Below, piece after piece: positions 3,443-48,026 of a DNA stretch of 64,000 bases. The DNA is from an uncultured bacterium. Lineage in GTDB: Bacteria > CAZDME01 > JAYEMH01. The number at the start of each line of letters is the position of its first letter. The stretch's first letter is position 1. The notes under the pieces are model-generated. The model had not been told where the DNA came from. It searched no databases and saw nothing but the letters and a program-made list of their open reading frames with translations. The position numbers and the translations under genes were made by a program. Location of the stretch: positions 134 through 64,133 of the forward strand of contig CAZDKO010000004.1 in assembly GCA_964506075.1 (NCBI GenBank), given 5' to 3'.

Positions 3443-3451
3443 CTGCTTCTC

Positions 3452-3582
3452 CCATTAGTTAACTGGTGAGCGGTGAGCAGCAAATAGTCGTTAGTGAATA
3501 GTATCTAGTATTTAACAACTACTAAATACTAACGACTAGCGACTAAATACTTAATAACCCACCCTGTTCACTACTCACCATA
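3452..3582. repeat. Long quasi-palindromic spacer built from GGTGAG / TAGTNNN words and their complements
   Basis: GGTGAGC GGTGAGC (3465-3478) opposes CTCACC (3574-3579). TAGTCGTTAGT (3485-3495) is the exact reverse complement of ACTAACGACTA (3528-3538). AGTATTTA (3507-3514) pairs with TAAATACT (3523-3530). The 17-mer TAAATACTAACGACTAG (3523-3539) recurs at 16776-16792. Confidence 0.85.
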
Positions 3583-3584
3583 TC

Positions 3585-5683: not shown

Positions 5684-5779
5684 AAGTAGTCAGTAGATAG
5701 TAGACAGTAGTCAGTGCTAAATAATCAGTTTTTAATTTTAGGCACTTTGAAACTTCGAGCTTTAGGCATTTCATACTTT
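5684..5779. repeat. Tandem heptamer array TAGTCAG TAGATAG TAGACAG TAGTCAG followed by TTAGGCA/CTTT words
   Basis: Units at 5687-5714 read directly. AGTAGACAGTAGT is also found in the 38526-38553 array. Confidence 0.85.
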
Positions 5780-16692: not shown

Positions 16693-16715
16693 TTTATAAT
16701 TCCTCACTTTATTTA

Positions 16716-16832
16716 AAATGACTAATGATTAAAGTATCAATTTGGTTAACTGGTGAGCGGTTAATTGGTGAGTAGTAAATACTAACGACTAGATACTATT
16801 TAACCAATTAACCAGTTAACCAATCACCAATC
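16716..16832. repeat. Quasi-palindromic spacer (GGTTAACT GGTGAGC GGTTAATT GGTGAG ... TAACCAAT TAACCAGT TAACCAAT CACC)
   Basis: TGGTTAACTGG (16743-16753) is complementary to CCAGTTAACCA (16812-16822). GGTTAATTGG (16759-16768) is complementary to CCAATTAACC (16804-16813). The 19-mer at 16804-16822 is identical to 36916-36934. Confidence 0.85.
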
Positions 16833-16834
16833 GT

Positions 16835-22352: not shown

Positions 22353-22363
22353 TGTCCCTAAAT

Positions 22364-22480
22364 AGTTAACCGGTTATCCGGTTTGCCGGTTGGCCAGTTT
22401 GGTTAATTGGTTAAATGGTGACTAGTTAATTAACAAAACAGTTATTGTAGTCACCAATTAACCATTTACCGTTTAACCAG
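22364..22480. repeat. Tandem octamer array GGTTATCC GGTTTGCC GGTTGGCC ... GGTTAATT GGTTAAAT GGTGACTA, then complementary TTAACC words
   Basis: Units at 22372-22424 read directly. The 22-mer CCGGTTATCCGGTTTGCCGGTT (22370-22391) is identical to 37888-37909. The 18-mer at 22378-22395 is the reverse complement of 38586-38603. Confidence 0.9.
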
Positions 22481-22482
22481 AT

Positions 22483-24321: not shown

Positions 24322-24334
24322 CTTTCATCTCCTC

Positions 24335-24561
24335 AATTAAAGTATTAAGGATTATGACGCTCACTTCGTTCGCTTTAAGAATTAAGAAAATAAAAGTATC
24401 AGAGAATCATCACTCACCCTTTACTAAAATCAGGGTTCGTTAGGGTCAAAGTACCTGGACACTTTGATACTATGACACTCTGACACTTTTATCATTAGTC
24501 ATTTAAGAATTAGACATTTATTTTACTTACTTCTTAATCCTTACTACTTAATCCTTAATTC
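24335..24561. repeat. 227-bp spacer of inverted word arrays (TTAAGGATTA...TTAAGAATTAAG / GACACTTT GATACTAT GACACTCT GACACTTT / CTTAATCC TTACTA CTTAATCC TTAATT)
   Basis: Four tandem 8-mers at 24458-24489 belong to the same family as 1837-1868. TTAAGGATTA (24345-24354) is complementary to TAATCCTTAA (24549-24558). Confidence 0.85.
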
Positions 24562-26400
24562 TTACTTCTTAATTTCCCCCTCAACCGGTATTACGTCAAA
24601 AAACTCCACACACGGTCTTTCCGGCATTAAATTTTTATTCCCTATCCGCCCGATAACCGTAATCAAGGCCCCTTCCTTTAAATCCTTTGTTTTCTGCGGT
24701 TTAGCTGTGCCCGCCCTTTCACAAAAAACATCTTCCTCTCCAAAATAATGCGGCTGAGGGTTCAGTAATAACCTGAATTTATAAATCTCACCCATACCTG
24801 TTTTTACAGGATAACTTATTTCACCGAACCAGACTATAATTTTACCCTCGGTTTCCTTAATGTAGCCGTTATTCCTGGCCTGGTCTTCAACAATATCCCT
24901 ATACTCTATCGGTTTATCCTGAGCGAGCCATTTTTCATAAAGATTGTTTCTCTTTAGAGAATCTATAATTACCGGTTCAGGAATTTTAGTTTTATAAGAA
25001 GGCTGATAAGCAAAATAGGCCCAGCTTAACCGGCTGATAAATACAAGCACTACAATAAAACATATCACCCCGAATATTTTTTTAATTTTTTTAAACCCGG
25101 GAAAGAAAGATGATTCTGAATCAGCATCAAACTTATCCCCCGGGGCCAGAATTTCTTTTAAATTACGCCAGTCAAACCGGTTGATATTAAATAAAAGATA
25201 AACAAAATAGCCGGCAAAAATAACCAGAAACTGTTCTAAGGGCAGCCGGTAACGGGGCAGTCCTCCGTAAACCGAAGAAGCTAAAGAATAAAAAATAAAA
25301 ATCAGGATAAAAATAAAAAACCTTCTCCGAAGAAAACCGGCCCTGAGAATTCCTAAAAATCCAAACCAGAAAACACAAAAAGAAGAAAGCAAAGCTAAAT
25401 TAACGAAATTGAATTTATTTTCCCCTTGAGGTAATTGAACCGCCCAGAGATCGTCAAAGCGTTTATGCATATATCTCAGGTAAAGACGGGGATTGGACTT
25501 AATAAATGTCCACCCTTCCCTAATCAAACGACGGTCGCGCTCTATTTCGGTAAAAGAGGGATTTCTCCATAATTCATCCTGCCAGGCCTCACGGGCGTAA
25601 AAATCCCCTCCATATTTCGGATTGGCGCCGGTCCAGAACTGCCGGTAGCCGCCGCTGGAAATAATAAAGGCACCGTGAATAAAGTAATTTCTAATCAGCC
25701 AGGGAGAAATAGTTAACAAGCTTACTGAAAAAACCAGTATCCCTGATTTAAAAGCCCGGAAAATTCTTTCTTTAATCTTAAAAGGAAGCCACAGAAGACT
25801 GACGATGCTTAAAATTAAGCCGGCGGGCCTGGTTAAACCGGTTAAACCAATAAGTATACCGCAAATCACCGCCTTTTTAAAACGCGGCTTTTCCCCTGTT
25901 TCAAGCAGTAATAAAACCGAAATCCCAAACAAAAAATTGAAAAGGGTTTCCCGCATCAATTGAAAATTAAGAAGCATATACGGAATGTAAAAAGCCATAA
26001 TCAAACCGGAAATAAATCCTATTTTTTGATTAAAGACTCTTTTACCAATTTTATATACCACCAGACAGTTTAAAATTCCTATTAAAGCCTGAACAATTTT
26101 TATTATTGAATAATTATGCCCGAAGAAAGAATAAAAAAACGTTAAGAACAAGGGATAAAACGGTTCAATAAAAGATTGATATTTAAATCCATAAAGGAAA
26201 TGTCCAAATCCTTTTCCCTGAAGTATATTTATCGCCAGGATATCATATTCCAGAGCATCACCGAAAGGAATCCCTCGGTGTTCAAAACCCGGATTAAATC
26301 CGGTCCGGTAATATAACCAGCGGTTTAAAAAAGCGATAACAAAAATCAAACCCACCTGGAAATATTCATTATTCAATATTTTCACTGTTTCTTTTTTCAT
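24562..26400 (-). CDS. Polytopic GT-C glycosyltransferase, GT39/ArnT-like
   Basis: 612 aa. GDALEYDILAINILQGKGF follows TM1 (PMT_2-type motif). It has at least 10 TM helices and a soluble ~150-aa C-terminal domain. Confidence 0.65.
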   Translation of the reverse strand: MKKETVKILNNEYFQVGLIFVIAFLNRWLYYRTGFNPGFEHRGIPFGDALEYDILAINILQGKGFGHFLYGFKYQSFIEPFYPLFLTFFYSFFGHNYSIIKIVQALIGILNCLVVYKIGKRVFNQKIGFISGLIMAFYIPYMLLNFQLMRETLFNFLFGISVLLLLETGEKPRFKKAVICGILIGLTGLTRPAGLILSIVSLLWLPFKIKERIFRAFKSGILVFSVSLLTISPWLIRNYFIHGAFIISSGGYRQFWTGANPKYGGDFYAREAWQDELWRNPSFTEIERDRRLIREGWTFIKSNPRLYLRYMHKRFDDLWAVQLPQGENKFNFVNLALLSSFCVFWFGFLGILRAGFLRRRFFIFILIFIFYSLASSVYGGLPRYRLPLEQFLVIFAGYFVYLLFNINRFDWRNLKEILAPGDKFDADSESSFFPGFKKIKKIFGVICFIVVLVFISRLSWAYFAYQPSYKTKIPEPVIIDSLKRNNLYEKWLAQDKPIEYRDIVEDQARNNGYIKETEGKIIVWFGEISYPVKTGMGEIYKFRLLLNPQPHYFGEEDVFCERAGTAKPQKTKDLKEGALITVIGRIGNKNLMPERPCVEFFDVIPVEGEIKK

Positions 26401-33873: not shown

Positions 33874-35064
33874 TTAAACTCCAAATTTATCCAGAGCTTC
33901 TTCAAACCTGTCCAGTACGGCTTCCCAGCTGAAATTTTTCTCAACGTAAGTTTTGCCGTTCTTCCCCATAAGAGTGGATAATTCTTTCTCTTTCAAAAAG
34001 AAGTTAAGACATTCCTCAAACTCAAAATAATTCTGAAAGAAGAGTCCCCCTTTACTGCGTAAGCAATGGTCTCTGGTAACGGCGCAGTCCCCGTGGACTA
34101 AAACCGGACGTCCTGATAACCAGGACTCCATAATCACAATGGAAAGGCTTTCATTGATTGAGGGCTGGCAGAAAAACAGCGCCGCACTAAAACCGTCCAG
34201 TTTGTCTTTTTCTTTCATATAGCCGAAATCCAGAATATCCTTTTTTGATTCCGGCGGGATCTGGATTTCACCGGTGCCCATAAGGACGAACTTTAAATCA
34301 TTTTTATTATACTGCTTATAAGTCCGGAAATATTCAATTAGAAGAGGAATGTTTTTACCGCCTTCTCTCCGGCCGGCAAAAATCACGAAAGGACTGGATA
34401 AAGCGTATTTTTTTCTGAAGTGTTCGGGTTCATAACTTCTCCCGGTTTTAAATCCCAGACTTACCAGAGTAATCTTCCCCTCAGGAATCTGATAAAGCCT
34501 TTTAGCCAGTTCGATTTCCGGGAAGGTGTTAAACATCAATCCCCTGACCGTCCCGAATAAATTTTTGTAAATCCCAAGGTAAGCAAATGGTTCGTCATGA
34601 AGACAGGGAATAAGCAGTGATTTCTCCGGGCAAATCTGAGATCCCCAGTAAGTTAAGCCAAATAGATAAGGAATAAAAACGAAACAATCGTAATTATTCC
34701 GGTTTTTCTTAATATACCCGTATAAATCGTCGGAATTAACACTCTCTTTAATCCATCTTATCTGGTCCTCATAGGAAATTTCCATCCGGTGGTCAATCCG
34801 TCTTTGAATGGACAGGAAATCCTCTGTCCGGCGGTTTAAGTTAACCAGGAAACGCCAGACGAGGACCTCGTTAACCGTCTTTTTCCCCGGTTCATAATAA
34901 TTCTTCCAGGTAAAGTGGTCCCTGGCGCAGGTAGTCAGCACCTCCACATTATGGCCCCGTTTTTTGACCTCTTCAGCCAGACGCTGGGCATGGACTTCCG
35001 CCCCTCCGGCTGAAACCGGCTCGTAACGAGGGACAACAAAAGCAATCCGTCTTTTTCTGCTCAT
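33874..35064 (-). CDS. Glycosyltransferase family 4
   Basis: 396 aa. GGAEVHAQRLAEEV N-terminal motif, FAGRREGGKN, and NESLSIVIMESW (EX7E-like). Confidence 0.8.
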   Translation of the reverse strand: MSRKRRIAFVVPRYEPVSAGGAEVHAQRLAEEVKKRGHNVEVLTTCARDHFTWKNYYEPGKKTVNEVLVWRFLVNLNRRTEDFLSIQRRIDHRMEISYEDQIRWIKESVNSDDLYGYIKKNRNNYDCFVFIPYLFGLTYWGSQICPEKSLLIPCLHDEPFAYLGIYKNLFGTVRGLMFNTFPEIELAKRLYQIPEGKITLVSLGFKTGRSYEPEHFRKKYALSSPFVIFAGRREGGKNIPLLIEYFRTYKQYNKNDLKFVLMGTGEIQIPPESKKDILDFGYMKEKDKLDGFSAALFFCQPSINESLSIVIMESWLSGRPVLVHGDCAVTRDHCLRSKGGLFFQNYFEFEECLNFFLKEKELSTLMGKNGKTYVEKNFSWEAVLDRFEEALDKFGV

Positions 35065-35486
35065 TTTTCCCGTTTCTTATTAATCTCGGCTATCGTCCTG
35101 TCCAGTTTTTCGTTTAAACTGATAACCGCATTTGTAATCTGGGCGTTAAACTCTTTCTGCTGGCTGAAAAGCCGATAGGTATAGAATTTTAAAAGGTTCC
35201 AGATAATTTTCTTTAAACAGACAACCGGTTTTCCTAAAAATCCACCCTTGGAATGGATTTCAAAGTCACCGATATTTATATCATAAGTCTGCCGTAACAC
35301 TTTCAGATAGTATTCTAAAAAATCTCTGTCATCGGAAATTTTTTCAATTTCAAGATTATGGACCCGGCTGAGGTCATATTTTTCATAAAAACCGGCTTTC
35401 TTTTTTTCCTCAATTCTCTTATCAATAGTTTCCATAATCTTCCGGATATCAATTTGACTATCCTTAATTTCAAAAAGATTTTCCAT
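35061..35486 (-). CDS. Hypothetical coiled-coil protein
   Basis: Start placed at ATG 35486 (MENLFEIKDSQIDIRKIMETI...) with AGGAG 9 nt upstream. The track's 15-codon N-terminal extension falls inside the heptamer repeat. No recognisable catalytic motif. Confidence 0.5.
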   Translation of the reverse strand: MENLFEIKDSQIDIRKIMETIDKRIEEKKKAGFYEKYDLSRVHNLEIEKISDDRDFLEYYLKVLRQTYDINIGDFEIHSKGGFLGKPVVCLKKIIWNLLKFYTYRLFSQQKEFNAQITNAVISLNEKLDRTIAEINKKREK

Positions 35487-35507
35487 GTTTGATTTCTCCT
35501 TACCGAA

Positions 35508-35647
35508 TATTGGTGAGCAGTGAGTAATCAATACTGAATAGTCGCTAGTAGTTAGTATCTAGTAGACACTAAATACTCTTCACCAGCGATTATATCCTTT
35601 TTAACCAAGCAACCATTTAACCAATCACCAGTTAACCATTTAACTAA
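35508..35647. repeat. Eleven consecutive degenerate heptamers followed by TTAACC-type octamers
   Basis: TGGTGAG CAGTGAG TAATCAA TACTGAA TAGTCGC TAGTAGT TAGTATC TAGTAGA CACTAAA TACTCTT CACCAGC spans 35511-35587. Then TTAACCAA...TTAACCAT TTAACTAA TTAACCAG. Confidence 0.9.
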
Positions 35648-36835
35648 TTAACCAGTCTTTATCCGCCACTTACACGGAATTTCGACAAAACCCTCGGCTT
35701 TTTTTTCGCTCTCTACCCAGATAACGTACTGATTATCCTGACGATGATATTGCTTCTGGTGATCCTCGGAATGTACCGCCAGAGAAAAAAAGTATTTGCC
35801 GTGAAAAAGAGGCATGGATTCAATTATTAAATCAATCGTCCCTTTTCCTTCAATAAAGGGTATGGCATATTTTTCTAAAATTGTATTCGTCCCGTAACAA
35901 AGAGTCCCTTCCCTGTCGGTAATACCAAACCCGAAACACGGATTATCAATTCTTTTCTTGGCATTAAAAGGTATCCGGACGATAATTTTATCGCCGACTA
36001 AAAAATGCTGATTTTCTTTACCCCGGACATCCAGAAATTTGACGTTGCCGATTTCAACCTCTCTGGTTCCCCATTCTTTAGCCAGCAAACCGGCCTGCTT
36101 CTGTAATCCCAGCTCCTTATATCTATCCACTACCTGTAAAGGTTCACCCATATCGATAAACTTACCTTCATCAATAAGCATTATCCGGTCGCAGACTTTC
36201 TTCAAAGTATCCAGGTCATGGGAAACTATCAGCATAGTTTTGTTTCTTTCCTGAAAATCAACAATTTTATTTAAACATTTTTTGCGGAAAGTTTCGTCTC
36301 CTACCGCCAGCACCTCGTCAATTAAAAGGATGTCCGGGTCTACCTCTACGGCTACGGAAAAACCAAGCCGAACATACATTCCGGAAGAATAATGTTTTAC
36401 CGGCATATCAATAAAATTTTCCAACTCTGAAAAAGCAACTATCTGGTTAAATTTTTTCTCAATTTCTTTCCGGTCTAACCCTAAAATCGAACCATTTAAG
36501 AAAATATTCTCTCTACCGGTTAAATCAGGATGAAATCCCGCGCCTAATTCTAAAAGACTTGAAACTCTTCCTTCTACTTTTATCTCCCCTTCAGTAGGAA
36601 GCATCGTTCTGGCAATTAAACCCAGTAAGGTACTTTTCCCGGCTCCGTTAGCTCCGATTATTCCTAAGGTTTCTCCTTTCCCTACGGAAAAACTTATATT
36701 TCTCAAAGCCCAGAATTCGGCTTTTTGCTTCTTTCTTCTTTTAAAAATATCAACCACCGTAGATTTAAGAGTCCGGTAAACTTCCCGGTGGGGATAAAAT
36801 CTTTTACCTAAATTTTTCACTTCAATGGGAATCAT
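35648..36835 (-). CDS. wzt: Polysaccharide ABC exporter ATP-binding protein with C-terminal carbohydrate-binding domain (Wzt/TagH type)
   Basis: 395 aa. Walker A GANGAGKST, signature YSSGMYVRLGFS, Walker B LLIDEVLAVGD. An extra ~150-aa beta-rich C-terminal domain resembles the Wzt_C layout. Confidence 0.85.
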   Translation of the reverse strand: MIPIEVKNLGKRFYPHREVYRTLKSTVVDIFKRRKKQKAEFWALRNISFSVGKGETLGIIGANGAGKSTLLGLIARTMLPTEGEIKVEGRVSSLLELGAGFHPDLTGRENIFLNGSILGLDRKEIEKKFNQIVAFSELENFIDMPVKHYSSGMYVRLGFSVAVEVDPDILLIDEVLAVGDETFRKKCLNKIVDFQERNKTMLIVSHDLDTLKKVCDRIMLIDEGKFIDMGEPLQVVDRYKELGLQKQAGLLAKEWGTREVEIGNVKFLDVRGKENQHFLVGDKIIVRIPFNAKKRIDNPCFGFGITDREGTLCYGTNTILEKYAIPFIEGKGTIDLIIESMPLFHGKYFFSLAVHSEDHQKQYHRQDNQYVIWVESEKKAEGFVEIPCKWRIKTG

Positions 36836-36851
36836 TTTAAATCCTTGGTAT

Positions 36852-36934
36852 TGGTTAACTGGTTAATTGGTAAATAGAAATCTAAAGTATAACCAATTGA
36901 TCGTTTAACCAATCACCAATTAACCAGTTAACCA
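36852..36934. repeat. Perfect 19-bp inverted repeat (TGGTTAACTGGTTAATTGG / CCAATTAACCAGTTAACCA) with 45-nt loop between wzm and wzt
   Basis: The arms at 36852-36870 and 36916-36934 are exact reverse complements, checked base by base. The right arm is identical to 16804-16822. Confidence 0.9.
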
Positions 36935-36935
36935 T

Positions 36936-37700
36936 CTAAAGCTCATCCGCGAAATAGTGTTCTAATTTAGAAAAAATTAAAAGTCCAAGAATCAAAATAA
37001 CCGCCGAAACCCCTAAAGAAATACTGAGCAGCTTCCAGCTGATTAAAGCCTGCCCGAGAAAGACAGTTCGGTATAAAGTCACCAGCGCCGCCATGGGATT
37101 CAAAAGATAAATTTTAAGCGCCCACTCCGGTACCATTTCTAAAGGATAAAGAACAGGAGTAAGGAAAAACCAGGCCAAAAGGGTTACACTTATAATATGT
37201 TCTGTATCCCGGAAATAGACGTTAGAACAGGAAATTAATAAAGACATCCCCAGGATAAATAAAACCTGAAAAATAATTACCAGCGGAAGAAAAATAAGGT
37301 TTATGGTAAAGTGGGTCTTGAAAATTACAAGAAGAGCAAAAAGAATAACCAGAGAGAGTAAAAAATTAATCAGATTAGCCAGAACCATAGAAAACGGGAG
37401 AATAAATCTGGGGAAATAAGTTTTCTTAACCAGATTGGTATTACCCGAGATTGAATTAACCGAATCACTCAGACACATTACAAAAAACTGCCAGGGCATA
37501 ATACCGGTTAAGAGCACCCTTATATCTATTTTCCATCTTAATATCCCGATAAATATAAGATAAATAACTGTCATAAACAGCGGATTTAAAAGCGTCCAGA
37601 GAAATCCTAAAGTTGAACCCTTATACCGGATTTTCAGGTTCCTTAAAACCAGATTCCAGATTAACTGGCGTCTCTTGATTATTTCACTAAATTCACTCAT
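36936..37700 (-). CDS. wzm: ABC-2 type polysaccharide exporter permease (Wzm/TagG type)
   Basis: 254 aa with 6 TM helices. Typical N-terminus LIWNLVLRNLKIRYKGSTLGFLWTLLNP. Adjacent to wzt. Confidence 0.85.
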   Translation of the reverse strand: MSEFSEIIKRRQLIWNLVLRNLKIRYKGSTLGFLWTLLNPLFMTVIYLIFIGILRWKIDIRVLLTGIMPWQFFVMCLSDSVNSISGNTNLVKKTYFPRFILPFSMVLANLINFLLSLVILFALLVIFKTHFTINLIFLPLVIIFQVLFILGMSLLISCSNVYFRDTEHIISVTLLAWFFLTPVLYPLEMVPEWALKIYLLNPMAALVTLYRTVFLGQALISWKLLSISLGVSAVILILGLLIFSKLEHYFADEL

Positions 37701-37720
37701 ATTTTGTCTCTCAAGATTTT

Positions 37721-37912
37721 ACCGCCTGCCCGCCACGCTTTTTGGCGGGCCTGCCTCGCCTTTTGGCGGGTGGTTTCTGCTTTCTATAATAGATATAGAC
37801 CCTATAATATAAAAGCGGGAGTTAAAAGTCAAGGGAAAAGCCTTTGTCGGTTAACCGGTCAAATTAGTTTACCGGTTGGCCAGTTAGCCGGTTATCCGGT
37901 TTGCCGGTTAAT
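37721..37912. repeat. Composite spacer: 48-nt GC-rich element (37725-37772) plus CCGGTT-word array (37848-37912)
   Basis: GCCCGCCA (37728-37735) pairs with TGGCGGGC (37743-37750). 43 of 48 nt match 48352-48399. The 22-mer at 37888-37909 matches 22370-22391. Confidence 0.9.
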
Positions 37913-37975
37913 CAAACAGAGTGGGAGGGTTTTACTGTTTAAACGCGGGGGCAAACTGAATAGAAATAATATGTT

Positions 37976-38518: not shown

Positions 38519-38619
38519 CTTCCAGTAGTTAGTAGACAGTAGTTAGTAGTCAGTAATTTTTAATCAGTTATCAGTTTTCAGAACTGGCCAACCGGCAAAC
38601 CGGAGAACCGGTTAACCGA
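38519..38619. repeat. Eight tandem heptamers (TAGTTAG TAGACAG TAGTTAG TAGTCAG TAATTTT TAATCAG TTATCAG TTTTCAG) plus inverted CCGGTT-word block
   Basis: Heptamer units at 38526-38581. GGCCAACCGGCAAACCGG (38586-38603) is the reverse complement of 22378-22395. Confidence 0.9.
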
Positions 38620-39285: not shown

Positions 39286-39288
39286 CTT

Positions 39289-39600
39289 TTAGTAGTCAGT
39301 GGTTATCGGTTAACCGGTTAGCCGGTTTACCGGTTTAACTAAAATGCCTAATTCTAAAATGACTAATAAGAAAACAGAAACCAGAGTACAGAGAACAGAA
39401 AAAATTCTATTTTGGTCATTTGAGCATTTAGACATTTATTCGTCATTACCTGCCTGCCGCCCGCCTGTCACCTGCCTGTCGGCAGACAGGGAGTACAGTT
39501 TACAGAAAAAAATTATTTTAAAAGTTCTAATCTGTTCTCCGCACCCTATTTTTTTTACTTTGTTTTTTTCTGTTATCCGTAATCTGTTATCTGTTCTCTA
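39289..39600. repeat. 312-bp nested spacer: CCGGTT words, ACAGA/TCTGTT inverted heptamer arms, central GC-rich CCTG-word hairpin
   Basis: GAGAACAGA (39391-39399) is complementary to TCTGTTCTC at 39531-39539 and 39590-39598. CTGTTAT CCGTAAT CTGTTAT CTGTTCT spans 39570-39597. CCTGTC-GGCA-GACAGG spans 39475-39490. Confidence 0.85.
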
Positions 39601-39603
39601 AAT

Positions 39604-44851: not shown

Positions 44852-45351
44852 AATCCACCTAAACTATTAAACATGATATCCCGGAGATCCCAGAAACGAT
44901 AAGGTAAAAATAATTGAAAAAGTTCATCAAAAAAACCGATAGTAAGGACAAAAAGCCAGGCAAAGCCGACTCCGTAGGTTCCTTTTTTATTTTTAGTGAT
45001 TAAATCCCGGCTGGCAAACCAGCCCAGCAGGCCGAACTCCAGGATATGGATTCTTTCCTGCGGTAGTTTCATCTGCCAGGCTAAACCTAATCCGGTTATC
45101 AGTAATACCAGCAATAGCAGATTTTTCTTTAAACCCGGGGTATCCTTTAGAAAGAAAAAAAGAAAAGCCAGTCCGGCTAAAATAAGTATTAGCCCGATTA
45201 AAATAACAAACGTTTCTTCCCCGTAACAGCCTGTGAACCCCTCCATTAACTGCCGGGTAAAAAGAGAAGAAAAAATAATGAATAAACTGAAGAATATCGT
45301 TATTTTAGAAATTAGCTTAAAAAGGTGACAGGCTACTTTTCCGTTTCTCAT
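44812..45351 (-). CDS. VanZ-like family membrane protein
   Basis: 179 aa with 4 TM helices. FFDELFQLFLPYRFWDLRDIMFNSLGG is the VanZ signature. Its ATG shares one base with the RAYT stop (TAATG). Confidence 0.7.
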   Translation of the reverse strand: MRNGKVACHLFKLISKITIFFSLFIIFSSLFTRQLMEGFTGCYGEETFVILIGLILILAGLAFLFFFLKDTPGLKKNLLLLVLLITGLGLAWQMKLPQERIHILEFGLLGWFASRDLITKNKKGTYGVGFAWLFVLTIGFFDELFQLFLPYRFWDLRDIMFNSLGGLWGIGLYYLKKII

Positions 45352-46013
45352 TATGTTCCTTTTTTTGGCCTTCCTCTTGATCTAAGGGTAGATTCCAATC
45401 CCAGTTTTTTACTTACTTGCACTTGCCATCTTAATGTACCATAGGGAGATTGACGATGAACACTCTGACGAATGTTCTGTAATTCTTTCTCTGTTAGTGG
45501 TTCATCTACATATCTATTCCAATTTTGAGTCAGTTCTATGGGAGTTTTATCAACCAAGAAGGGCGACTTTTCACCAATAAGCTCTCTATGAGAAGACCAT
45601 ATCCACTCCTTAGCCGAACCAACCAAAGCAGCCCTCACTGGGTTAACCTCAACATATCTCATCACTGTCAGTAAATGATTGTCATTTTGTATAATAAAAC
45701 TCTTAAAACGTCCTTGCCAAATATGCCCACTAGATCCATAATGCCGATGATAACGGCGCACATGACTTGTCAGCAGCCATTGCATAGATTTGCTTAGTTC
45801 TTCAGCCTGAACAGGCATCACAACTAGATGAAAATGGTTTGGCATTAAACAATATGCAAAAATTTTTATGGCATACTGAGCTTTTGTTTTCACCATTAAA
45901 TCAATGAAAGCCTCATAATCCTGATCTTTATGAAAGACTACTTGCTTGCCATTTCCACGGTTAAGCACGTGATAAATAAAACCACTCCTTAAACCTCTTG
46001 TAATCCTTGGCAT
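45351..46013 (-). CDS. REP-associated tyrosine transposase (RAYT), IS200/IS605 TnpA-like HUH/Y1 enzyme
   Basis: 220 aa. YHVLNRGN, CLMPNHFHLVV (HUH) and RYVEVNPVRAALV (catalytic Tyr motif). The ORF is intact. The 663 bp contain no CCGG tetramer, although CCGG is very frequent in the flanking genes. Confidence 0.85.
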   Translation of the reverse strand: MPRITRGLRSGFIYHVLNRGNGKQVVFHKDQDYEAFIDLMVKTKAQYAIKIFAYCLMPNHFHLVVMPVQAEELSKSMQWLLTSHVRRYHRHYGSSGHIWQGRFKSFIIQNDNHLLTVMRYVEVNPVRAALVGSAKEWIWSSHRELIGEKSPFLVDKTPIELTQNWNRYVDEPLTEKELQNIRQSVHRQSPYGTLRWQVQVSKKLGLESTLRSRGRPKKGT

Positions 46014-46024
46014 GAGTTATCCCC

Positions 46025-47776
46025 CTAATTAAAAGTAGCCTGTCCCCTTTTTATTTGATAGATCCTGGCTTCGGGAAAATCTTTAATGAATTTTAAATCC
46101 TCGGTGTTATCGAGAATAGATAAAGCTTTATCATCATAGACATCCTTATGAACAATTAAATAATTTACGCCTAATTTACTTAAAACAGAAAAACTCTGAG
46201 GGTTTAAAATATCCAAAACTGTTTTTCTTATCTCCTCCCCTTTTGAACCGGCAGGAGCCCCGTTAATCATTTTTTTCTGATGGACCCTCTGATAAAAAAG
46301 ATACCGGTAATGATTTTCATTTATCCAGTCATATAAAGGATATTCAGCTATGACTATATCGGCTGGTTCTTCAGCCAACCAGCTATACACCGGCGGAACT
46401 TTACGAAAATCCACGTTGCGGAAAGGAGGGATAACCGTATATTCAAAAAGTATCAGCCCGGAAAAAACCAAAGATAAAAAAATCTGCTGAGATCTTTTTT
46501 TAATTCTTAAAATAATATTTCTTAAGCCGAAAGCAGCTAATACGGCTACAGAAAGTATAACCAGAATTCCTACCCGGGCATTAACTCTGAACATCGGGAA
46601 AAAACGATAAAGGAAAAAAGAAGGGGTCGGTATTTTTATTTTCCATAATTTAATGACTGGAGCCAGAGAAAAATAAAAAGAAAAAAACGCTGTTAAAAGA
46701 AAAAACGGAACGTAAAAATTCTCTCCGGGTTCAATTAACTTTTGCCGGTGATGCCCTATCCACCCCCATACCCCTACCACCGCTAAAAGTAAAGGCACTA
46801 TTCCCAGATAGAGTGTGGTTTCCGACCAATATCTTCTTCCTCCGGTAACTTTCTCTATTATTTTTTTAGTAAAGTTACCGAATAGCGGATGGTATTCACT
46901 GGGCAAAATGTAATCATAAGGTTTAGCTGCGTAACGGAAGAGGTCAGTATAGGGCTGAACGTATTTGATAAAACTCGTTGTTTGCTCCGAAGGAAGAATT
47001 ATGTTTTTTATCGTCTGGTAAGTCGAAGGCAGAAGCAATAAAACAACAATCAATAGCGTAAACATCACTATTTTAAAGTTTTCTAATCTTTTCTTGGAAC
47101 TAACTTCATATTTTCTGTTAAACAATTTATATATAATTTTAAACAAAAAGAAAGCGGCGGTAAATAAAACCATAAAATAGCCGTAATAGAAAGAGCTGAG
47201 CGTCAAAAGGACAAAACTCAAGGCTAAAAAAAGACCGTTCCGGTAAGATTTTCCCCCGGCAAATTTAAATAAAATAAGGATATAAAGAGGCATCCATTGA
47301 ATTGCCGCTAAACCAAAATGAGAAAAGGCCTTAAGTGAATGGTAGGGGCAAAAAGAAAAAATGATACCCGCCATCATACTTCCCAATTTTTCCCTGGTTA
47401 AATAAAAAACCAAGTAATAAGTTATAATGGCAGAAAGAATGAAACTGGCCAAGATAAAAAAATTGTAAGCGAAAAATTCATTTTGCCATAGGGAAAGAAA
47501 AAGCATTGGATAAGATAAACAAGGCTGGGTCACTTCCCCGCTCATATCTAAACCGGAAGGATAAGCGATTAAATGATTGAAAGTAACCGGATATTTATTT
47601 AACCAGGCGAATTTTGCCCACCAGATGCTGTAAAGAGACCCGAGGGAATCAAATGTCCAAGCCGGGTCACCGAAGATGCTGTGATTTATTTTTAACACAA
47701 GAGGATAAGTGATTATTAAGCTTAGCAAAATAAAAAAAGAGAAAATGATTATTTCTCCTTTTTTAAAATTAAACAT
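46025..47776 (-). CDS. Polytopic membrane protein, GT-C-like (same family as 40290-42221)
   Basis: 583 aa. LIITYPL...FGDPAW...YSIWW follows TM1. Multi-TM, with a C-terminal soluble domain ending in a GVNYLIVHKDVY region comparable to GIKYVIVHFKMI in 40290-42221. Confidence 0.5.
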   Translation of the reverse strand: MFNFKKGEIIIFSFFILLSLIITYPLVLKINHSIFGDPAWTFDSLGSLYSIWWAKFAWLNKYPVTFNHLIAYPSGLDMSGEVTQPCLSYPMLFLSLWQNEFFAYNFFILASFILSAIITYYLVFYLTREKLGSMMAGIIFSFCPYHSLKAFSHFGLAAIQWMPLYILILFKFAGGKSYRNGLFLALSFVLLTLSSFYYGYFMVLFTAAFFLFKIIYKLFNRKYEVSSKKRLENFKIVMFTLLIVVLLLLPSTYQTIKNIILPSEQTTSFIKYVQPYTDLFRYAAKPYDYILPSEYHPLFGNFTKKIIEKVTGGRRYWSETTLYLGIVPLLLAVVGVWGWIGHHRQKLIEPGENFYVPFFLLTAFFSFYFSLAPVIKLWKIKIPTPSFFLYRFFPMFRVNARVGILVILSVAVLAAFGLRNIILRIKKRSQQIFLSLVFSGLILFEYTVIPPFRNVDFRKVPPVYSWLAEEPADIVIAEYPLYDWINENHYRYLFYQRVHQKKMINGAPAGSKGEEIRKTVLDILNPQSFSVLSKLGVNYLIVHKDVYDDKALSILDNTEDLKFIKDFPEARIYQIKRGQATFN

Positions 47777-47802
47777 TCTATCCTCTCCTTTTATAAATTA
47801 AG

Positions 47803-48015
47803 TTATCCCTCTTTTCTTATAAGAATCCTGATAAAATTTATAATCACGCCTATAACTAAAAGAAAATAGGTTAAATTAGCCATCTGTTCGGCAAGTTGTT
47901 CTTTTTTCAAAAGAAGAAACCCGGCTGCGACAATAAAAAACAGAAGAGCTAATATGATAAAACCTGAGCCGGGGCTTTTTTTAACGTATTTAAAAAAATT
48001 AGCGAATAATTTCAT
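47803..48015 (-). CDS. Small two-TM membrane protein
   Basis: 70 aa with two hydrophobic helices, sitting in the operon between two large membrane-protein genes. No homology recognised. Confidence 0.4.
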   Translation of the reverse strand: MKLFANFFKYVKKSPGSGFIILALLFFIVAAGFLLLKKEQLAEQMANLTYFLLVIGVIINFIRILIRKEG

Positions 48016-48026
48016 CGTTGTTCTCC

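Follow-up and report, generated by a model that had tools for sequence, protein, structure and literature searches.

The subject of this analysis is a 64-kb stretch of DNA from an uncultured bacterium (64,000 nt of contig CAZDKO010000004.1, hereafter the window), and in particular its long intergenic spacers, which hold tandem arrays of 7- and 8-nt units. The arrays are real and confined to the spacers, they frequently face inverted copies of themselves, and the spacers of the window are diverged copies of one modular element. The best explanation, to which we give about even odds, is a slippage-driven, dispersed intergenic satellite with dyad symmetry that probably forms intercistronic stem-loops.

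According to Tandem Repeats Finder (TRF), all 12 true spacers of at least 100 nt hold at least one period-7 or period-8 array. The array periods are 7 and 8, never a multiple of three, and both results agree with what an earlier note on this DNA had claimed for the long spacers; its six other example arrays were also found at the positions it gave. The periodicity check it had proposed was run on the window spacers and yielded an excess at lags 7 and 8 over shuffled controls. In the 14 stretches analysed as long spacers, the autocorrelation was 0.409 at lag 7 (z=13.9 vs shuffles) and 0.358 at lag 8 (z=9.3), with echoes at lags 14-16 and 21-24, while coding DNA was flat (0.263 at lag 7 and 0.261 at lag 8). 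Strongly periodic tracts make up 406 of the 2342 non-coding bases (17.3%), compared to 35 of the 61658 coding bases (0.06%), and 13 of 13 such tracts are located in spacers. Chance or low complexity is ruled out by the shuffles together with the coding-DNA control. The same applies to an assembly artefact, since independent assemblies agree: Logan assembly SRR10178537 is 100% identical over 3.7 kb spanning two array spacers, and a second assembly, SRR10178538, shows 98.9% identity.

The architecture is illustrated by the spacer between wzt and a downstream gene encoding a 141-aa protein (35487-35647, minus strand). The spacer, whose flanking genes were assigned by Pfam, is filled entirely by the repeat element. 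The earlier note had given the positions 35508-35647; the 141-aa gene (35061-35486, minus strand) starts at ATG 35486 and not at the listed TTG 35531, as found by codon-by-codon reading, so the spacer extends over 35487-35647. The Shine-Dalgarno (SD) sequence of this gene, AAGGAGAA (35496-35503), and its ATG (35484-35486) together span 35484-35503 on the minus strand and directly follow the element. At the other end, seven A-N-TTAACC octamer or A-N-TCACC heptamer units (8+8+8+7+8+8+8 nt) are found at 35601-35655, reading TTAACCAA GCAACCAT TTAACCAA TCACCAG TTAACCAT TTAACTAA TTAACCAG (TRF periods 8, 15 and 23; repeat family D1). This block bears out the switch to units of ~8 nt that had been noticed before. 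On the mRNA it consists of GGTTAA/GGTGA units and makes up the G-rich outer arm on the 5' side. Its first GGTTAA unit provides the stop codon of wzt (TAA, 35648-35650; ...ACT GGT TAA), so that the array overlaps the end of the coding sequence. The inner hairpin (35536-35597, minus strand, RNAfold domain coordinates) is composed of TAGT-N3 heptamers (35532-35565, plus strand; TRF period-7 array at 35539-35565), which face N3-ACTA-type partners (35566-35587). A remnant of the 3' outer arm, CTCACTG CTCACCA, C-rich on the mRNA, was recognised at 35503-35531 by alignment with the sister strain L002.

The heptamers quoted in the earlier note for 35511-35587 are correct, with T at unit position 4 in 10 of 11 units. 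They do not constitute one array of 11 consecutive heptamers, but instead three modules in a single register: a GGTGAG-type arm, the TAGT heptamers and ACTA-type inverted partners. By TRF, the homogeneous part amounts to only 3.9 copies (35539-35565). Over 1.5 kb, the differences between strain L002 and the window amount to two substitutions and a single indel, in which L002 carries 15 extra nt, CTTACCAATTAACCA (heptamer plus octamer, 7+8), between 35517 and 35518. In the predicted fold, this insert pairs the outer GGTGATTGGTTAAATGG... arm with its partner, resulting in a complete nested hairpin; the sense RNA of the spacer folds at -51.9 kcal/mol with the insert and at -41.5 kcal/mol (z=-2.9) without it. 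As the 15-nt insert closes the outer stem, the 11 heptamers resolve into what is left of the outer 3' arm, the TAGT heptamers and the inverted heptamers that face them.

A common grammar is found in the spacers. On the sense strand, a stop codon is followed by GGTTAAnT/GGTGAnT units and AGTAnnn-type heptamers; beyond a short centre come nnnTACT-type heptamers, AnTCACC/AnTTAACC units, and an SD sequence with start codon. The commonest units are A-N-TTAACC and A-N-TCACC, often alternating as a 15-nt higher-order unit. Since TRF also gives periods of 15, 16 and 23, octamers and heptamers alternate as higher-order units. Further unit families include TAGT-N3 and CCGGTT-N2, and at least six families occur across the 12 spacers. 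A universal 'RGT' core shared by all families and by the cyanobacterial and TAACTGA repeats discussed below is not supported, as no trinucleotide dominates among 297 other arrays. The inverted pairs consist of outer TTAACC/TCACC arms and inner TAGT/ACTA heptamers. Because each such array faces its own inverted copy, the DNA or any transcript can form long nested hairpins. Predicted folding is far stronger than that of dinucleotide shuffles in six of the 12 spacers (z -4.9 to -7.4), and in 9 of 12 the sense RNA folds better than the antisense RNA, which is a weak hint. Strings of 20-50 nt are common to several spacers (families D1, D3, D6, D7 and D11), and five spacers align end to end with unit-sized gaps. 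This homology between spacers, the hairpin architecture of inverted arms and the 15-nt unit had been overlooked in the earlier note. A comparison with Rfam 15 gave no match at gathering thresholds and only sub-threshold matches to generic hairpins (miRNA precursors); a tRNA search of the arrays yielded none.

The earlier note had further proposed to compare orthologous spacers, and this comparison revealed an empty and a filled site. The nearest relative located is L123, a JGI metagenome contig with 37% GC, which encodes LPG synthase, AsnB and a radical-SAM protein in the same order (70%, 58% and 66% amino acid identity, respectively). Its junction between the LPG synthase gene and asnB is 5 nt long (...AGAAGG-TGA-CTTGG-ATG), with the SD sequence overlapping the stop codon, whereas in the window 142 nt of arrays and a new SD sequence lie between the conserved protein ends. 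No target-site duplication is visible at the filled site in comparison to the empty site of L123, and none of the L123 spacers carries arrays. Changes on a shorter time scale were seen in 32 pairs of related contigs, which had been fetched for other reasons. Here, arrays account for 2% of the aligned bases yet for 16 of 35 indels, an enrichment of ~40-fold, and 7 of the 16 array indels are exactly 7, 8 or 15 nt long. The arrays thus change by unit-step indels and are absent from the orthologous coupled junction. In addition, a 51-nt palindromic insertion (around L155:4514) separates loci L182 and L208 from L155 and L178. Its position coincides exactly with the loop of a GGTGAGT...TTAACCAATCACC hairpin, which suggests that hairpin loops serve as targets in which further small palindromes insert and become nested.

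Two regularities of orientation were observed. When an inverted partner was counted within 250 nt of an array, the G-rich arm came first in a ratio of 20:1 in genome loci and 23:0 in independent metagenome loci, i.e. in 43 of 44 TTAACC-family pairs together. The ratio was 18:3 for unrelated families, e.g. GACAGAA...TCTGTCT, TAAAGGA...TCCTTCA and ATGAGTG...ACTCATT, and in 11 of the 12 window spacers the left half has the higher GC skew. This polarity is not a replication or transcription strand bias, since a palindrome reads identically on both strands. The second regularity concerns solo arrays, which, when read as TTAACC, abut the open reading frame (ORF) on their 3' side in 55 of 62 and 41 of 52 cases. 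The abutting edge is an ORF start (32 and 27) about as often as an ORF end (30 and 25), so the direction of the gene is irrelevant; the median distance between array and ORF edge is ~30 nt. A hairpin is frequent, but not obligatory.

The proposal that the arrays mark transcription-unit boundaries could not be upheld. Arrays occur between wzm and wzt and between the LPG synthase gene and asnB, the latter being the junction that is coupled over 5 nt in L123. A scan for sigma-70-type -35/-10 hexamers, which may miss other promoter types, showed no enrichment of promoter-like sites (38 vs 42.9 expected), and terminator-like sites were not above shuffles (26 vs 19.6 expected), none of them on the sense strand of the array hairpins. 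Arrays as markers of promoters or terminators were rejected on these grounds. Of the seven array spacers between 22 and 40 kb, one holds a sense-strand promoter-like site (37804-37832, minus strand, TTGACT-17-TATTAT), which is the best sigma-70-like match in this region. It sits in the non-repeat core of the 275-nt spacer upstream of wzm and, by its sequence, is a plausible promoter of the wzm-wzt unit. We conclude that the arrays create long spacers and do not mark pre-existing boundaries.

In the satellite reading, slipped-strand mispairing lengthens and shortens the arrays in steps of 7, 8 or 15 nt, and arrays have expanded in, or been introduced into, junctions whose genes are tightly coupled in a relative. 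They are presumably transcribed within the long one-strand operon. Paired arrays may then act as intercistronic stem-loops that break translational coupling, by analogy with the hairpins of short tandemly repeated repetitive sequences (STRRs) or of enterobacterial repetitive extragenic palindromes and bacterial interspersed mosaic elements (REP/BIME); each element is followed by a fresh SD sequence. The stem-loops may also alter local mRNA stability or read-through. Overall, the arrays would reflect self-perpetuating repeat dynamics, tolerated in non-coding DNA only, with no dedicated regulatory design.

Several observations weigh against this explanation. Each unit has one variable position (octamer A-N-TTAACC, heptamer A/G-N-TCACC), at which C is almost never found, and in the 32 contig pairs the substitution rate is 1.15% in arrays and 1.17% in the mostly coding flanks. 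Neutral junk would be expected to decay more evenly than units with such a constrained core and a flank-like substitution rate. Two window spacers fold no better than shuffles, and 69 of the 92 TTAACC arrays in metagenome loci are solo, without an inverted partner. Slippage combined with template switching accounts neither for the G-rich-first order nor for the anchoring at ORF edges. The reach of the reading is also limited, as the distribution of arrays in the source organism was covered by this 64-kb window. Since plain slippage fails for the constrained core, the substitution rate and the polarity, models of binding arrays and of transposable elements stay alive.

Such arrays are widespread in Bacteroidota, in the PVC group (Planctomycetota, Verrucomicrobiota and relatives) and in other bacteria. 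A scan of a species-representative genome collection with the query TTAACCnnTTAACCnnTTAACC gave at least 120 matches. Among the matches listed, 60 belong to Bacteroidota, 14 to Planctomycetota, 6 to Verrucomicrobiota/Kiritimatiellia, 6 to Cloacimonadota and 10 to Proteobacteria by record title, with the rest scattered; cultured carriers among the matches listed are Pedobacter, Dokdonia, Salinimicrobium, Belliella and Aequorivita. Examples of such carriers are Pedobacter chinensis JDX94, Dokdonia pacifica DSM 25597 and Salinimicrobium xinjiangense DSM 19287. These taxon counts are indicative only, as composition controls exist for the viral collection and not for the genome and metagenome scans. 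The 20-nt composite TTAACCAATCACCAnTTAACC was found exactly in at least 120 metagenome contigs with GC contents of 0.27-0.60, often directly before an SD sequence and ATG. Arrays of TTAACCnn x3 occur in 60 IMG/VR contigs (L244-L303), including giant-virus metagenome-assembled genomes (MAGs), and none of the arrays in these 60 contigs has an inverted partner. Three control octamers of the same composition gave 29, 35 and at least 120 stretches in the viral collection, compared to 60 for TTAACC. Because the controls are similarly frequent there, abundance alone is no proof of a special core, and the idea of a special cross-phylum conservation of TTAACC was withdrawn. Arrays of other families in bacterial loci have periods of 7 (189), 8 (50), 9 (36), 10 (17) and 6 (10). 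As a separate observation, two adjacent perfect heptamer arrays, CGTCGTC x4 and CGGAATA x4, at L491:11039-11117 (and L492:1849-1927) fall within an ORF that was called in an Omnitrophota MAG for a 463-aa oxidoreductase; they may represent a frame-shifting insertion or a mis-called gene. A literature search with the unit strings turned up nothing relevant.

One alternative is that the arrays are cis-acting binding sites for a trans-acting factor, either a protein that polymerises on DNA at 7-8-bp spacing or an RNA-binding protein acting at gene boundaries. The DNA version would be ribbon-helix-helix-like, following the precedent of operator arrays with 7-8-bp spacing (MetJ on metboxes, omega on heptads, ParG on its boxes); the RNA version would involve a protein of the S1, Csp or CsrA type with control over translation or the fate of the mRNA. 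The near-invariant unit cores with a single wobble position would be expected of binding sites, as would a substitution rate no higher than in flanking genes, the position at ORF edges (median ~30 nt), often directly before SD and ATG, and the exact recurrence of TTAACCAATCACCAnTTAACC in metagenome contigs of widely different GC content (at least 120 contigs, 0.27-0.60). An RNA-binding protein was also proposed by MacGregor for the TAACTGA repeats (PMC4679880). A single sequence-specific factor is insufficient, however, because many unrelated unit families per genome share the same period and polarity rules, and the independence of orientation from the direction of the adjacent gene (32 vs 30; 27 vs 25) would not be expected of a sense-specific RNA site. 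L123, a relative that has these genes, lacks arrays, the arm lengths are unbalanced and vary between strains, and in the viral collection TTAACC and control octamers matched to it in composition are equally common. For a ribbon-helix-helix protein in particular, the scan of 49 ORFs revealed no small DNA-binding gene, and at least six unit families are spread over the 12 spacers. We therefore regard binding arrays as unlikely, though worth keeping in view. A similar degree of doubt applies to the broader idea that the arrays are the product of an undescribed general mechanism shaping intergenic DNA in many Bacteroidota, members of the PVC group and other bacteria. If true, it would follow two rules that are independent of the unit: a purine/G-rich array always precedes its pyrimidine/C-rich partner, and solo arrays are always oriented toward the nearest ORF edge. 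Such a polarity would require one of three things: it would have to come from a directional array-building process, from a structure-reading factor coating 7-8-nt periodic nucleic acid, or from a selective filter at gene boundaries, e.g. one by which the C-rich arm is not exposed before its partner is made.

The arrays could also be arms of non-autonomous transposable elements resembling miniature inverted-repeat transposable elements or REPINs, with the array arms as terminal inverted repeats and a transposase acting in trans. Homologous composite copies in several spacers, a filled and an empty orthologous site, the fixed arm order and the 51-nt palindromic insertion in a hairpin loop between relatives are consistent with this model, and the window encodes an HUH/Y1 transposase close to REP-associated tyrosine transposases (RAYTs). 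We nevertheless consider it rather improbable. The filled site lacks a visible target-site duplication, most arrays are solo, unrelated unit families show the same polarity, and variation proceeds via internal unit indels and not via presence or absence of whole elements. The RAYT-like gene has its own, unrelated 23-nt terminal repeats of the GGGGWSAS type, and the neighbourhoods of its homologues carry the identical bracket and almost no arrays. Within ~1.6 Mb of array-bearing loci, no transposase was found between G...gene...C array pairs. Judged by sequence, the ORFs enclosed by such pairs look HemL-, MreB- and pyruvate dehydrogenase (PDH) E1-like, i.e. like housekeeping genes, and array arms as ends of an autonomous transposon were rejected for this reason. 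Phase variation, in which copy number would switch the expression of surface-glycan genes at contingency loci, appears very improbable. In its favour, the window encodes a surface-polysaccharide cluster, two co-occurring strains differ in copy number, and arrays are indel hot-spots. On the other hand, the arrays lie outside ORFs and mostly not between promoter hexamers, elsewhere they flank housekeeping-like ORFs (hemL, mreB, PDH) and leaders of many unrelated genes, and the gene-dense 40-64 kb half of the same glycan cluster is devoid of them.

The transposase gene mentioned above (45351-46013, minus strand) encodes a 220-aa RAYT-like HUH/Y1 protein (Pfam Y1_Tnp, E=1e-14) with the motifs NHFHLV and RYVEVNPV. 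It scores 77 bits against the NCBIfam model of REP-associated tyrosine transposases, for which the cut-off is 80, and matches TnpA_REP (PDB 4ER8) with E=1.4e-6. The gene is bracketed by a 23-nt inverted repeat (45318-45340 and 46031-46053, 96% complementary), which overlaps the called ends of both neighbouring ORFs; the element is co-directional in the glycan operon. The bracket sequence AAAAGGGGACAGGCTACTTTT fits the GGGGWSAS motif of 'TIRtron/TIRYT' elements (Di Nocera et al. 2013) and was not found elsewhere in the window. Homologues of the transposase with 65-80% identity exist in Omnitrophota, Nitrospirota, Elusimicrobiota and other taxa, and seven loci (L488-L493, L495, L496) show the identical bracket and a co-directional position inside operons. 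Their neighbourhoods contain 0-2 periodic tracts per 20 kb, compared to 13 per 40 kb in the window. With unrelated terminal repeats and array-poor homologue neighbourhoods, the RAYT-like gene was dismissed as driver of the arrays. The region 45318-46053 is thus a known kind of element, a compact TIRtron, and no link to the arrays was found.

As a class, the arrays are not new; they belong with the intergenic tandem heptamers known as STRRs and as long simple sequence repeats (LSSRs), as the earlier note had seen for the cyanobacterial repeats. STRRs can form hairpins between co-transcribed genes such as hupS-hupL in cyanobacteria; their function is unknown, and roles in transcript stability or translational coupling have been proposed (PMC2670836). 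The arrays described here share with them the tandem units of ~7 bp, the presence of several families per genome, the intergenic location and the predicted hairpins between genes (six spacers including wzm-wzt, z -4.9 to -7.4). They differ from STRRs in the prominence of octamers and of the 15-nt higher-order unit, in the strict G-rich-arm-first dyad arrangement documented here, and in their non-cyanobacterial host. The canonical STRR units are reportedly CCCCAGT, TTGGTCA and CAACAGT, said to go back to Mazel and colleagues in 1990, and none of the three was found in tandem on either strand of the window. That the host is not a cyanobacterium is evident from the absence of HIP1 (no copy in the window), the strong SD sites and the best named AsnB homologues, which stem from Calditrichota/KSB1 (~44% identity); the lack of cyanobacterial hallmarks had been pointed out before. 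LSSRs, as summarised in PMC4679880 from Mrazek et al. (2007), have units of 5-11 nt with heptamers commonest, occur sporadically across the phylogeny and are mostly intergenic; the same summary names polymerase slippage as the proposed source and states that periods that are not multiples of three are kept out of genes. The intergenic period-7/8 excess and the dominance of period 7 among arrays of other families (189) are in line with this. Pairing, homology between spacers and polarity toward ORF edges are outside that summary, which treats arrays singly.

TAACTGA repeats are found in Beggiatoaceae, cyanobacteria and Bacteroidetes, where they are intergenic, commonly just upstream of start codons and in a fixed orientation; Bacteroidetes also have 'other heptamer direct repeats', and strains differ by indels in 7-nt steps (MacGregor 2015, PMC4679880). 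The window holds a related string, AAACTGA-TAACTGA on the sense strand (38563-38581), consisting of one exact copy and one copy with one mismatch, and no exact tandem TAACTGA. In contrast to the published repeats, this copy is located mid-spacer (38519-38619), at least ~45 nt from the start codon, the dominant families differ, and half of the arrays studied here abut stop rather than start codons. REP/BIME sequences are extragenic, dispersed hairpins, often in inverted pairs and mostly between co-directional and convergent genes, and are plausibly transcribed and act on mRNA (PMC3733652). A REP is one imperfect palindrome of 20-40 bp that carries an unpaired GTAG or CGTC tag at one end, and REPs are associated with RAYT genes. 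Our arrays are likewise extragenic, hairpin-forming, dispersed and often arranged in inverted pairs, as are REPs, BIMEs and REPINs. Unlike REPs, however, they have arms made of tandem 7-8-nt arrays, show no evident tag and were not found to be linked to the RAYT-like gene; GTAG is present within the CAGTAGT/TAGTAGA heptamers, where it belongs to the repeat and does not form an unpaired tag at the end. Pneumococcal BOX elements belong to this comparison too and are built from modules, with internal repeats that vary in number. Operators of ribbon-helix-helix proteins resemble the arrays in their direct and inverted 7-8-bp units with a conserved core, and in the omega system the relative orientation of the units matters; those arrays are single loci at a regulated promoter with one unit type, whereas here dozens of sites and many families are involved. 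Integron attC-like sites (GTTRRRY/RYYYAAC) were set aside as a comparison, their arm order being the opposite.

The other array spacers of the window vary the same theme. The wzm-wzt spacer (36836-36935) consists of GGTTAACTGGTTAATTGGTGA... facing ...TCACCAATTAACCAGTTAACC, predicted to form a near-perfect stem of more than 20 bp, with a minimum free energy (MFE) of -34.6 kcal/mol (z=-5.85). The spacer between the LPG synthase gene and asnB (16693-16834, z=-5.2) has a GGTGA/GGTTAA arm, TAGT/ACTA heptamers and a TCACC/TTAACC arm. A composite element at 3443-3584 (MFE -49.0 kcal/mol, z=-4.9) shows a long TAGT/ACTA heptamer hairpin between a GGTGAG and a CTCACC arm and shares strings with other spacers (D6, D11). 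At 22353-22482 (z=-5.2; family D2), an array of CCGGTTnn octamers is followed by a GGTTAA/GGTGA ... TCACC/TTAACC hairpin. Nested hairpins of other unit families, AAGGATTA...TAATCCTT and GTATCAGAG...GACACTnT octamers, were found at 24322-24561 (MFE -65.9 kcal/mol, z=-5.3; TRF arrays at 24458-24487 and 24533-24573). The largest nested element (39286-39603, TRF; MFE -98.3 kcal/mol, z=-7.4) combines GGTTnnCC octamers, AGAAAAC heptamers (39369-39402) that face TCTGTTA heptamers (39569-39599), and a central GC-rich palindrome. Unpaired arrays are present at 38519-38619 (CAGTAGT/TAGTAGA heptamers, ATCAGTT units, which include the AAACTGA-TAACTGA string on the sense strand, and AACCGGnn octamers; TRF and periodicity mask) and at 1825-1944, where GACnCTnT octamers and a 23-nt higher-order TTAACC/TCACC array (TRF period 23, 93% matches) gave no significant fold (z=0.3). 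Smaller arrays comprise five CTAnnCG heptamers at 2431-2465, AGTAGAC-type heptamers at 5685-5715 (TRF; family D7), which are homologous to 38523-38557 with 83% identity, and CCGGTTnn octamers at 37866-37910 in the 275-nt spacer upstream of wzm. In this last spacer (37701-37975), the more stable predicted fold is that of the antisense strand (-96 kcal/mol vs -78 kcal/mol for the sense strand). GC-rich palindromic repeats of a second type adjoin or sit inside array spacers (~655-690, 37728-37773 and 39448-39490). They include CCCGCCAAA(A/G)..TTTGGCGGG hairpins, ACCTGCCTGTC x3 and CCTGTCGGCAGACAGG, and comparable GGCGGG hairpins adjoin TTAACC arrays in the metagenome loci L139 and L146.

The window has a GC content of 38.8%, and 49 of its 49 ORFs are encoded on the minus strand. 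A Pfam scan identified it as one very large surface-glycan (surface-polysaccharide) cluster with glycosyltransferases of the GT1, GT2 and GT-C types, PMT_2 proteins, a Wzm/Wzt ABC exporter (wzm, 36936-37700; wzt, 35648-36835; both minus strand) and AsnB, along with radical-SAM proteins, methyltransferases, sugar epimerases and a polysaccharide deacetylase. Junction lengths are bimodal, with 37 junctions of at most 46 nt (median -1) and 12 of at least 100 nt. All 12 array spacers fall into the 1-40 kb half, and the longest junction of the 40-64 kb half does not exceed 37 nt. An apparent array-free 'long spacer' at 47777-48026 really encodes an uncalled 70-aa membrane-protein ORF (47803-48015, minus strand, MKLFANFFKYVKK...) with two hydrophobic stretches and its own GGAG site, for which a Pfam search yielded no match. 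The start of asnB is ATG 16692 (MSGICG, conserved in L123) and not the listed GTG 16707. The listed starts at 16707 and 35531 lie too far upstream, and these extensions enter arrays.

Taken together, the class of these sequences is known (STRR/LSSR type); new details are its occurrence in this host, the family of octamers and 15-mers, the comparison of a filled with an empty site and the rule of polarity. First described decades ago, STRRs and LSSRs still await an explanation and tend to be regarded as a peculiarity of cyanobacteria; here, they are carried by a non-cyanobacterial organism. In a 40-kb operon, all long spacers are such elements and a syntenic relative has none, which provides a natural comparison of filled and empty sites. 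The 15-nt unit, the unit-step indels, the G-rich-first order and the anchoring at ORF edges regardless of gene direction are testable regularities. As arrays occur in cultured Bacteroidota, their effects on expression, their binding partners and their mutation rates are directly measurable. For the reading of such genomes, the practical lesson is that arrays inflate spacer length within operons, and long spacers of this kind are not to be read as transcription-unit boundaries.

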